Shown here one piece after another: positions 3,757 to 63,195 of a stretch of 64,000 nt of DNA (position 1 is its first letter; every line of letters starts with the position of its first letter). A program made the translations under genes and the position numbers. The notes under the pieces are model-generated. The model saw only the letters and a program-made list of their open reading frames with translations, was not told where the DNA came from and made no database searches. The stretch is taken from contig NW_027191402.1 of assembly GCF_041146345.1 (NCBI RefSeq), positions 310,001-374,000 on the forward strand, read 5' to 3'. This DNA is from Neodothiora populina. Lineage: Eukaryota.

Positions 3757-5610
3757 CTTTGGTCGTAGGGATTTCTCGCCCGCACCGACGAACCGCCTCC
3801 AAAAGCAGTTCTGCAGTAGTACAAGAGCTTCAAGTCACAGCTGACCGGAGGTGGGTGAGTCCAGAAAATCTGCCTCCAGAAAGACTCAAAGACTCTATAA
3901 TCACCAGCGCGTAAATTTGCACCCCTCTATTGCTGCGACTTGGGAATAAAAGAAGGCCGTCGATCCAAGACAGTCAACGTTGCAGCGGCGTCGTTCGCCC
4001 GGTCTAGCGGCTTTGCGGTGACAACGTTGACGTGTGCGTGTGAAGGTGTGAGTAAGTGACTCGGCCGTGTGGGAGACGGTGGCTGATCAGATGCTGCTGA
4101 TGATGATGCCGTATTTATTCGTCTATGACGAGCAAAGAAAACATATCAGACGGAGCAAGACTCTAGGTGATTATGTACAGATACCGCACTGCGAATGGGA
4201 GAAAAGAGGACGAATCACGCCAAAAGGACAAGAAGAAAGCCGGTAAAGAGTGGCACAAGAAAGCGATGCCCGCCGCTTCCATTACACACTGCGCGGACAT
4301 TGATGTTCTGTAGGAGATGGGGAGTCGCGCAACGTGAGACGCACTAAGACACCCCTAAACACGCGCCAGGACCCACCCCGGTAGCCGTCCTGCGTGCGTG
4401 GACATGCTAACAACAATGGCCTACTGGTGGAAGCTGGGAAGAGGGGCCCAGAAAATGCAACTTGTCTCGCCTCCTGTCACTTCTGGTCGTTGTCTGCGCA
4501 AGCTTCCAGCCCTGCCCAGACTTTTGTCGTCCGACTCCCGAACGCATTGCCAAAGTGACGGAGAGTCAAATCTCCACCATTCCACTTGCATCACCACTTC
4601 TTTGGCTTCTGGTAAGGTAATATGAAATAAAAGCCAAGGATGCTGTCTGTCCCACTCCTCGTGGCTATTTTGTCTTTGCGGCATCCTGGCTCGTTGAACT
4701 TTCCGAGCCTTCTTTCCCACTACTTTCTTGTTGTCTATACCAGCCTCTCCGCTAAGTCTTGGCTTGATGCGCTGTGTGAGATACCCCTCTGTACAAGGAT
4801 CACACGGTGTCTGAACGAGGACCTTGCCTGTTCGTGCGAACTGGGTTTGAGGCCTCTCGGGAACACCGCGTCTTCTACTGTGTTATTCTCGTGTCCGTGA
4901 TCTTCTCCCGTGCTATACATACTAGGAGTACATGTACAGCACAGTATTGATAGACTGTACTTGTAGGGTACCTGCGCATATATATCAATATTGATACGCG
5001 GATCAGTCATGTCATGACTTTGCCGCACTTGCTTAGCACCAGTACCTACCTACTACAAAACGCCCATGCTAAAAGCCACCCGAAGATTCCCACTGGGCAA
5101 CAGACCGCACGTTCTGAGCACCGCGCGTCCAATCTTCCCACCACTTCCTTATACAGCAGTGCAGTGGAATAAGGCAAATTATCAAACTATCAAACTCCGC
5201 ACGCTCTCCGCATGCAACCTGTCCGAGCGTTGAGCCTTTCGAATCGTGCACGCCTCTTTTTTCCCTTTACTGTAGTTGCAAAAGGTGGCCTTTACTCTTG
5301 CCGGCCTTTTCCCACGAGGCGGGATGGCTGTCTGGACATTTGATTGCATCATCCCTCCCACCCGAACGAGCATGAATCATGCATTTGTCTAGCTTTGTAT
5401 ACATTGGTCGATTACATGGTAGACTAGCTGTACAGTGAATATAAATCCTTCGAAGACGTAGCGTCCTATTCTGATTCAACTCACGAATGTTACACTGGTA
5501 CAACATGCAGTGATACCAATATGAGCTAAGGTACCTAAGGTAACATCCAAGCATCTTTTGACTCGTCATATCTCGCCAAGCCGGCACGACAAAACCATCG
5601 TTCATGGCAG

Positions 5611-59409: not shown

Positions 59410-61475
59410 TCAAAGACCAATGCCCTTGACTCGCTTAGCAAGTTGGTCTCCTCCATCATCATCGCCGTAGCCGCCATCGCCAGCAGCAGCATCAGCATAA
59501 GGGCTCGGGCGCTTCCTCGGTCTATCGCCGCTCATGTCCAATATCGTCAACAGCGTCTTCCAGCCTAATCGCACCATTCACACATAAACGTCAGTAATCA
59601 AAACCACGGCGGTTTTTTCAGATTTCTACATTTCAAGGATCGTTTGCAGAGTGGCCCAACCTGGTGTTTGCTGCAGCGCTGCACCGAGATTGGTGTCCTT
59701 GGTCGTCGCCACTTGGCAAAGGAGAGATAGTTCGTCCTGTGAAGTGAGATCAGTAAATGACTTGAAACATCAATCACGTGTGTCCTTCATACCTCGCTCA
59801 GCACGCCCATGCCCTGGATAAAGCACAACAGATGGAAGTCGGACAGCTTCGTGGTTCCCTCGGGTCGGTCTAGTCGTGCACCACTACCGAGTATCTTTCG
59901 AAGGTTGCGCGGCTCCTGCGTCTGGCCGACAAGTTCTCGGTTCTCTACGGTGAAGCTGGCGTCGTTGGCGAAGACCGGCTTTGCCTGGTCTGGAAAGCCG
60001 TGGGTCAGAGTGACGAGAAGATACTCGACCGGAAACGAAGGTTTGGCATTTTCTTGCACGTTGGCTCCATACTCGTTGATTTTCCGATAGAAGACTTCGG
60101 GGATGTATCGTGTGCGTCCAATGTCCTTTTCCTCGTCCTCATCCTGCACCAGCATGACGTTTGGGTCCGCCGAGGGCTCGACAATGTCGGCGCGCACCAT
60201 CTCAACGGCCGAGTCAGACGCCTGGTAAGCGGCGACGGCGATGTGATCCTCGTCGTCGCCGGAAATGACACAGGTAACAAAGTTGGAGCCAAAATAACCA
60301 GTCTCGCTCCATTTGGAAGGTCGGGGGTATTTGGCTTGATATCTCGAGGCGAATTGGATCTCCAGAGAAGAGAGAAAGTACGAGTCGATGTGGCGCTTGC
60401 ACACGACGGTGGCGTCGCCGGCATTGCTGTCAATGAGATCAGTAAAGATGACACCAACCCTCGTCAGGCCGCACAGGCTGGCCACGCGATCGACGTCGGC
60501 CTCGTTCTCCCACTGCGTAAGTGTGACCCCATCCAGTTCATCGACTTGGGGTGGCTCGTAGATGGCTTCCACGACCGCCTTTGTGCCCAATGGGATTGCG
60601 GTGTATTCTTCGTAGCGACCGTACAAAAAGCCTATTCTCTGGGTGCCAGAGTTGCGCCAAAAGTCCAGGATGGTGTTTATGATGGAAGGCGACGAGAACT
60701 CGACGTGATCGACCATGCGGTAGGGTTGCGGTTGCAGACTGATGGCGCTGGGCTGGCACTTGGAGCAGATTCCGGCGGGGAAAGGCTTGTGGCCCGAGGG
60801 GCAGTCGGGGCGGACACGATAATACGGCTCGGACAGCGGAGGCATGTAGGAGCTGCCAGACTCGTACTTGTTCTTGCCCTGGTTCAGCTTGCGGAGGTAT
60901 GCATGATAAGACAGGTGTTTGATCTTGTGTTCAGCCAGGTATTCAGCGTTGTAAGGCTCGAGAGGCATGCAGTAGTCACACATGCCCTTGGGGCCGTGTC
61001 TACACATCTTTGCGTCCTTGGGTCTGTGAATCTTGCCATCCTTGTTGTCTAGAGCGTCGTCCAAAGGCAGCTGCTTTACAGAGTCCCAAGGGTTCTTGAT
61101 GAGCTTCTGAGCGGCGGCGGACGGGGTGGAGAAAGCGACGCTGGCATCTTCTGCGGCGCTGACTTGCTTGCCATTCAATCTGTTTGCAGTGACAGGGTGA
61201 GCCTCGGCTTGTGCGGACGACGGAGGCTGTTGTTGGGTAAAGTCAAGAAAGATCTGATCGCCATGCTTCATGCCGAGGCGCTGGAACGTGACTCCCTGCA
61301 GACTCTGGATGGATCGAGAATCTCCGCCATGGCGTTGCGGACTGATAGTCACCGAAGCCGGGTCTGTGTCGGCAGGGAGCTTCTCGAGTGTCTGGGGCAG
61401 GATGGAAGCAATGTCTGCCGACGAGTCGATGTCTAGACGGAACTGGCCATTGCGGCTCTGGAATCTGAGTATCAT
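59410..61475 (-). CDS. NPL4: Cdc48 cofactor Npl4; exons 61475-59793, 59736-59661, 59564-59410 (long form) or 59736-59626 (short form)
   Basis: MILRF N-terminus, zf-NPL4 ([28 protein letters not shown]), [10 protein letters not shown] and [15 protein letters not shown]. Confidence 0.95.
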
Positions 61476-62318: not shown

Positions 62319-63195
62319 ATGACCATGGACTGGGTGGGCCTCCTGATCCCCCTGGCCTACCTCTCCATCCTGATCGGCTCGCTCGCAACCTTCAGCTCTC
62401 TATACCGCAAGCGCAAGGCCGCCAACTCGGCCTCCCTAGAGCCCTGGTTCCCCCCTCACCTGCAACGCAACGTCTACCTCTCCCTGCTGCACCTCGACCC
62501 CTCGGACCCATCCTCGACGCCCGACGACGCAGACAAGTCACTCAGCAAGATCCCGGACTCGATCATCAAGGCGGCGCTGCTGCGCCGCGCAGTCGAGGAC
62601 ATCCACCGCATCATCCAGGTGCGCAACGCCAAGCCTGCTCTCCAGACGCTGTTGCAGCGGGGCAGTGTCGGCGACGAGCTGTGGCAGCGCTTCCAGCGTG
62701 CGGAAAAGGAGATCGAGGACGAGGTCAAGGATGTCGTCGAAGAGGTATGCTTTTCTCCTTTTCTTTCTGCTCCGTTTTCCCTTCTCTGTTCTCATATGAC
62801 TGACATTCGAGTGCAAAAAGGCAAACGCGCTCGCCCCGGGCTGGGGCCAAATCATCTTCCAGTCCGCCAACGAAATCGCCAACAACCAGCTGGCCAAACA
62901 GCGCATGTCCGAGATCGCATCCCAGCTGCCCGCGGAGAAGACCTGGTGGGACGCCCGCAAGGAGAACATTTCTTCCGGCTTCATGAAAGAGCTCGAAGAC
63001 GAGGAACAGCAACAGCAGCAACATGGCAGGAACGGATCCGTCGTCTCGACCGCTTCTGTCGCTGCGTCTTCTGCGATGCCGGCTACGCCTACGAAGGGAG
63101 GTAGTGATGATGACGCTGTGCTTGTCGAGGCTGCACCGCAGCCGCCGGGGAGTGCGTCGAAGAAGAGGAACAAGAAGAACAAGGCGTCGTCGTAG
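62319..63195 (+). CDS. SEC66: ER translocation protein Sec66/Sec71; exons 62319-62744, 62821-63195
   Basis: N-terminal TM, FSSLYRKRK, WFPPHLQRNVYLSL, KAALLRRAVEDI and EEANALAPGWG. Confidence 0.9.

Follow-up and report, generated by a model that had tools for sequence, protein, structure and literature searches.

C-terminal dual targeting, intron gain by duplication and exitrons are known kinds of gene arrangement. Alternative 3′ splicing can target fungal enzymes to two places, one example being GAPDH of Ustilago maydis with its peroxisomal isoform (Freitag et al. 2012, related in PMC3798809), and the birth of introns through tandem (segmental) duplication of an exon piece that contains AGGT has been described by Hellsten et al. 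2011 (PMC3265369). Exitrons, or exonic introns, were described by Marquez et al. 2015 (PMC4484396). Here we describe the 3′ end of NPL4 in the fungus Neodothiora populina (Dothideales, subclass Dothideomycetidae), which lies on the minus strand of a 64,000-nucleotide stretch of contig NW_027191402.1 (assembly GCF_041146345.1, positions 310,001 to 374,000), hereafter the window. As far as we have seen, the combination of these arrangements at one gene is new, as is the replacement of one splicing mechanism by another with both outputs kept. No paper describing fungal Npl4 isoforms was found in the full-text literature, a body that leaves subscription journals outside its coverage, and such isoforms are already present in some public annotations.

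We propose that the 3′ end of NPL4 is probably a splice switch with two outputs, both of them functional Npl4 proteins. Exon 1 (59793..61475, on the minus strand like every NPL4 feature below) comprises 561 codons, which cover a putative UBX-like N-terminus, the zinc-finger region and MPN, as well as the greater part of the C-terminal domain. It is followed by intron 1 (59737..59792; 56 nucleotides, GTATGA...CAG, phase 0) and by exon 2 (59661..59736), which consists of 25 codons and the first base of a Gly codon common to two copies of the last helix. The retainable intron 2 (59565..59660; 96 nucleotides) has the donor CAG/GTTGGG, where the slash marks the junction, and the acceptor TAG/; a branch-site-like TACTGAC (59590..59596) stands 26 nucleotides upstream of the acceptor. 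Helix copy 1 and its stop codon TAG (59628-59626) occupy 59626..59661 and form the C-terminus of the short isoform. Exon 3 (59410..59564) encodes helix copy 2 (59533..59564, its Gly codon completed by base 59661) and a 40-residue tail (59410..59532) with the basic clusters RPRKR (59523-59509) and KRVK (59436-59425), ending at the stop codon TGA (59412-59410). Translation through intron 2 gives copy 1, TAG and a protein of 597 residues, and translation after splicing gives an in-frame join to exon 3 and a protein of 637 residues. In the window, 8 of 11 residues are identical between the two copies. The coordinates, splice motifs, stops and basic clusters given in a preliminary description of this locus proved correct when re-read in the window sequence and translations.

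According to the proposed mechanism, retention of intron 2 would yield copy 1 with its stop and a 597-residue protein whose end lies just past the final helix of the C-terminal domain, near the point at which Saccharomyces cerevisiae Npl4 ends. Use of the off-consensus donor G/GTTGGG would instead remove copy 1 and the stop, and would lead into copy 2 and a presumably disordered 40-residue tail (KR...KRVK), for a total of 637 residues. We infer that the long messenger RNA (mRNA) is made in N. populina.

The identity of the gene is supported by Pfam matches of its product to NPL4 (PF05021, E 5.6e-126) and zf-NPL4 (PF05020, E 1.4e-70). UN_NPL4 (PF11543) falls short of its cut-off, with 20.0 bits for residues 1-78 (E 9.6e-4) where 21.9 would be needed. 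The solved Npl4 of Chaetomium thermophilum was matched over its full length (E 3e-222, with the protein P0028 of a relative as query), and yeast Npl4 was matched likewise. The public N. populina model AAFC00_001723 (597 residues) is the retention form and matches the NPL4 of the window at 100%.

The same arrangement recurs among relatives. A scan of metagenome contigs gave 80 loci with DNA (L numbers below), of which 20 carry two helix copies; these represent 18 distinct sequences, or 19 with the window. The two-copy layout is identical in all 19, and copy 1 begins CCA GGT TGG GC in each of them. A stop codon, whether TAG, TAA or TGA, follows immediately after the last residue of copy 1 (19/19). 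The donor G/GTTGGG, a CTRAY motif 20-45 nucleotides before a YAG, and an in-frame join to copy 2 are found together in 18 of the 19 loci. In-frame splicing leaves the tail frame open in 18/18, for 38-52 codons, and the intron 2 homologues range from 70 to 203 nucleotides and are spread over all three length classes modulo 3. Mean nucleotide identity across two-copy loci is 82% over copy 1 and drops to 28% in the 27 nucleotides past its stop. This drop and the shared layout indicate that the feature in the window is not a chance arrangement. Protein matches from Dothideomycetidae end either in GWATL[QE]TILxM or in GW[KL]SL..I.. and a tail with KR and LAKRVK, and both ends are recorded in some species.

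Selection was assessed by pairwise Nei-Gojobori counts over 18 distinct two-copy loci, L020 being left out because it lacks an in-frame acceptor. For the nine core codons of copy 1, the proportion of synonymous differences (pS) is 0.58 and that of nonsynonymous differences (pN) is 0.041, which corresponds to a pN/pS of 0.07. Copy 2 yields a pS of 0.71, a pN of 0.26 and a ratio of 0.36, and the nine exon codons upstream of copy 1 have a ratio of 0.35. Within the tail, the motif L[AT]K[RK]V[KR] has a pN/pS of 0.17 (pS 0.82, pN 0.143) and the first basic cluster one of 0.31 (pS 0.839, pN 0.258). The low ratio of copy 1 and the collapse of identity past its stop therefore indicate that this nominally intronic helix is translated, and that it is better conserved than copy 2. 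Both alternative coding versions are under purifying selection, copy 1 strongly so, as the preliminary description had suspected from the residues that the two helices share.

The donor carries a further signature. Its only free base, the fourfold-degenerate third position of the Gly codon, is T in all 19 two-copy loci, and the remaining synonymous sites in the nine codons of copy 1 have three to five variants each and are near saturation. For comparison, the same Gly codon is GGT in 3 of 35 single-copy loci (Fisher 2e-11 versus 19/19) and in 5 of 18 instances of copy 2 (Fisher 7e-6), although these values overstate independence, as the loci within the clade are related. The constancy of this base argues that splicing of intron 2 is itself under selection. 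The donor had earlier been called weak, a reasonable term: of 58 distinct intron-1 donors, only 3/58 have G at +4 and only 3/58 have G at +6, two positions at which GTTGGG leaves the local consensus, and the G that it has at +5 is the usual one (49/58). The same bases are, however, dictated by the Trp-Ala codons.

The switch is older than the second helix. In 35 distinct single-copy loci, one helix continues into a tail of the form SGERPPKR...LAKR.KG.SL, and a single helix with tail is also found in named proteins from Leotiomycetes, Eurotiomycetes, Lecanoromycetes, Sordariomycetes, Botryosphaeriales, Trypetheliales and others. The Gly codon after the helix is GGT in 35/35 of these loci; 33 of them continue with GAG and 2 with ATG, which creates a donor G/GTGAG or G/GTATG. 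Comparison codons in the same loci behave otherwise, with GGT at the Gly of the helix start in 3/35, and a nearby Glu encoded by GAA in 24 and GAG in 9. A branch-like GCTAAG lies within the L-A-K codons, and an AG about 17 nucleotides further on, near the end of the open reading frame, would complete an intron. Its predicted removal shifts the frame onto a stop within the G-[AV]-S codons and leaves proteins ending in ESGG, ESGS or QSTG, which matches the short ends that are observed.

Spliced products of this kind can be recognized among contigs that resemble complementary DNA (cDNA). Intron 1 is present in 63 of 71 metagenome loci measured and absent in the other eight (L016, L019, L020, L021, L023, L041, L072 and L075), which we take for assembled cDNA, and a gene that neighbors NPL4 in L075 is likewise without the introns that it has in L065. 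L021 is without exactly the GT...AG stretch, which measures 128 nucleotides in L030, has matching flanks, and reads KESGG followed by a stop. The Logan-derived protein P0116 (KESGG) falls in one 90% cluster with the long Lepidopterella palustris model P0240, and the Logan-derived P0161 and P0238 (QTTG) fall in 90% clusters with the long Hyaloscypha models P0234/P0236. The tail stretch of single-copy relatives thus qualifies as an exitron, its spliced form being found in sequences whose RNA origin is deduced from the absence of intron 1. L019 matches this reading loosely and aligns poorly to L024. The pair L072 and L075 was rejected as exitron-spliced cDNA, since a gap of 11 nucleotides, apparent on alignment to L079, takes away the GTGAGC donor, and remnants of the tail persist out of frame.

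Some further loci vary at this end. The cDNA-like L041 (1798-1830) ends in GWATLLAILETAA and a stop (ETAA at its last residues), with no recognizable tail after it. L043, L045 and L047 (about 4823-5010 in each), which form a single-copy lineage, have the donor G/GTATGC instead of GTGAGC, and their tail ends in KRRKW and a stop, without the LAKR motif.

The S. cerevisiae Npl4 structure (6oa9_G, 580 residues) ends in ILQESG and that of C. thermophilum (6chs_A) has the tail. The short form is therefore the counterpart of the yeast protein, and the tail an optional addition of Pezizomycotina. The preliminary description had recommended comparing how orthologues encode the basic tail; such a comparison finds it coded as an exitron in single-copy Pezizomycotina and makes the alternation of short and long forms older than the duplication through which the two isoforms had been thought to arise.

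The 35 distinct single-copy loci lack intron 2, and so do the named outgroup proteins (from Botryosphaeriales, Trypetheliales and further classes). Each helix copy can be aligned to the one outgroup helix, copy 2 followed by the tail corresponds in order to the ancestral helix and tail, and the spliced product as a whole is colinear with the outgroup reading GW..L..IL..SGERPPKR. The donor junction is CAG/GT in 19/19 loci. The acceptor side is AG/GT in 5 of 18, AG/GC in 9, AG/GG in 3 and AG/AT in 1, with TAG/GC in the window; a duplication would be expected to leave AG/GT, and synonymous drift at a later time could account for the variety. Copy 2 of the two-copy loci no longer has the exitron donor. 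Most likely, then, intron 2 originated when a piece of the helix-coding sequence that contains AGGT was tandemly duplicated in the ancestor of Dothideomycetidae. Because of the colinearity, the AG/GT remnants and the loss of the exitron donor from copy 2, we suggest that this ancestor exchanged splicing that drops the tail for splicing that adds it, such that the duplication would have replaced an older, exitron-based route to the same two forms. The event is not simply the duplicated terminal exon of the preliminary description; the creation of an intron in this manner fits it, and the interpretation offered there is, overall, partly supported.

Comparison with the described systems brings out what sets NPL4 apart. 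The potato RdRp gene is reported as another case of intron birth by tandem duplication (PMC4974935). As in introns born this way, the 5′ end of intron 2 repeats how the following exon begins, with the donor in the AG/GT of the first copy and the acceptor ahead of the second, and splicing restores the single-copy reading of the outgroup. In contrast, the intronic copy in NPL4 has not decayed but has gained a stop and become more constrained than the exonic copy, so that the intron serves as an alternative coding end rather than a silent spacer. The single-copy tail stretch shares with exitrons an open, protein-conserved sequence inside the last coding exon, GT...AG bounds, and removal in cDNA-like sequences. 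Here, however, removal shifts the frame onto an immediate stop and produces a clean truncation rather than an internal deletion, and the lineage of the window has a stop-containing retained intron in place of the exitron. As with U. maydis GAPDH, one gene has two C-termini, one of which bears a targeting-type motif, and splicing near the stop decides between them. The NPL4 motif, judged from sequence alone, resembles a nuclear import signal rather than a peroxisomal one. Moreover, NPL4 also exchanges a structural helix for a paralogous copy, and the default product in the unspliced state differs between fungal classes.

A classical bipartite nuclear localization signal consists of KR, 10-12 residues and K(K/R)X(K/R). 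The linker from KR to K[RK]V[KR] measures 11-24 residues over 18 two-copy loci, the window included, and in 12 of the 18 it measures 11-14 residues. The import reading fits these shorter spacings, because K[RK]-x11-14-K[RK]V[KR] agrees with the bipartite consensus. Cofactor-borne import signals, as in the NLS-bearing VCF1/2, raise nuclear p97 in human cells (PMC10541173). By analogy, how much of the complex is in the nucleus could depend on a basic motif of import type that one of the partners of p97/Cdc48 carries, with the difference that the NPL4 motif, a prediction from the letters of the gene, would belong to Npl4 and come and go with splicing. We therefore entertain, tentatively and short of favoring it outright, the possibility that the tail is a bipartite signal for nuclear import and increases the fraction of Cdc48-Ufd1-Npl4 found in nuclei.

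The alternative that fares best accepts that both isoforms are made and assigns the tail another role, whether in binding a cofactor or substrate, in regulation or phosphorylation (KRPSP), or in stability. In that case the switch would adjust what Npl4 does or binds, not its location. Linker lengths speak for this explanation, since they extend from 11 to about 90 residues across lineages and thereby depart from a fixed bipartite signal; in the window itself the linker is 24 residues long, compared with the classical 10-12, and the longest linkers belong to single-copy loci. In an AlphaFold2 model of the long relative P0011 (mean predicted local distance difference test score, pLDDT, 58.9) the last helix is confident and the tail falls below a pLDDT of 50, and such predicted disorder would suit any short linear motif. 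Animal Npl4 carries a ubiquitin-binding zinc finger at the position of the tail. The agreement of most two-copy linkers with the bipartite consensus and the precedent of VCF1/2 both point the other way, and we regard a non-import role as less likely than not. The end of the tail was also compared by eye with the known consensus patterns of peroxisomal, PIP-box and APIM motifs, none of which it fits.

A second alternative holds that only the short form matters in Dothideomycetidae, that since the duplication and the new stop the ancestral C-terminus has survived in copy 2 and the tail as a remnant in slow decay, and that splicing of intron 2 is negligible. Several observations tell against a functional long form in this way. 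Every two-copy sequence that resembles a transcript is short: intron 2 is retained in all three two-copy cDNA-like contigs (L016, L020 and L023), and several Logan/JGI proteins, whose contigs measure 2-3 kb and have no intron 1, end at copy 1 (P0024, P0246, P0107, P0114, P0115 and P0158). P0246 is found on 54 contigs and belongs to the same 90% cluster as a long gene model. The retained short form appears to be the main transcript. The RNA origin of the eight intron-1-less contigs is itself deduced from that absence. No spliced long-form transcript of a two-copy lineage was present among the matches listed, in which all long forms are NCBI gene models; the search compared a long-tail profile with longer proteins and the members listed for 20 clusters, so that long forms may be hidden in it. 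One N. populina sequencing run, probably of DNA, contains a 228-nucleotide contig colinear with 59497-59724 that has no joint and is uninformative on splicing. In Pseudocercospora musae, Cercospora kikuchii and C. beticola both isoforms are recorded at one locus, with the first 584-585 residues identical. These pairs were not counted as transcript support, since that of C. kikuchii stems from prediction rather than RNA: its annotation was made by BRAKER2 with protein hints only (PMC8496228).

Genomic points add to this side. L020 is the sole exception among the 19 loci, as the usual donor has no acceptor there that would keep the frame. Loss of the tail is seen in the cDNA-like pair L072 (1805-1870) and L075 (1981-2050), a lineage that appears to make only short Npl4, and yeast is likewise without a tail. 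The long form is therefore dispensable in some lineages, given the lost donor and tail frame of this pair and the tailless yeast protein. Copy 2 is also less constrained than copy 1. Nonetheless, a decaying remnant would have to keep a donor base that is invariant amid nearly saturated synonymous sites, a branch motif with in-frame acceptor in all loci but L020, a tail frame that stays open despite intron lengths of every class modulo 3, and a tail motif of low pN/pS at high pS. We therefore consider it quite improbable that the short form alone matters, and retain the reading in which both products do. That only the long form is real, with retention as unproductive noise or a means of lowering expression, is scarcely credible: no splicing variant is reported to be commoner in fungi than intron retention, which often has no function, and many relatives have long NCBI models, but the very low pN/pS of copy 1, the stop of varying identity always directly behind it, the identity collapse past that stop, the cDNA-like contigs that have lost intron 1 and kept intron 2, and a short end close to that of yeast Npl4 all contradict it.

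In L020 (1904-2150), the protein end is identical to that of the short Dissoconium aciculare model. A GT inside its ATG-TAG, joined to a nearby CAG, would be in frame, although such a splice is speculative.

Public gene models conflict at the NPL4 3′ end, being short, long or chimeric (P0124, P0177, P0075, P0042, P0284, P0029, P0182, P0188, P0205 and P0206), and one chimeric join, in Cladosporium models, uses an acceptor 27 nucleotides inside copy 2. Conflicting models of this gene end are a systematic annotation problem, and their disagreement would be explained by the switch.

Upstream of NPL4, its divergent neighbor in the window is the gene for Sec66, a preprotein translocase subunit (PF09802, E 3e-56; 62319-63104, plus strand). 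An antisense reading similar to this Sec66 arrangement is found upstream of NPL4 in several related loci.

If two functional proteins are indeed made, NPL4 would be a clean and deeply conserved case of functional intron retention in fungi, where retention is mostly thought to be noise, and would include an intron that owes its origin to tandem duplication and holds, in its own copy of the helix, the coding end that is now the better conserved. An exitron in some lineages and a stop-containing retained intron in others lead to the same pair of proteins, which argues that both proteins matter. One isoform should disappear, and the other stay intact, if the donor Gly codon were changed to a synonym. 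The switch may also offer a testable handle on nuclear and cytoplasmic pools of Cdc48-Npl4 in filamentous fungi. More broadly, though we think it doubtful at present, filamentous ascomycetes might set the nuclear share of Cdc48-Ufd1-Npl4 through an NPL4 splice switch that has persisted across the classes of Pezizomycotina, and whose polarity was inverted in Dothideomycetidae with both products preserved; if so, it would be one of the rare documented replacements of an alternative-splicing mechanism with conserved outputs.

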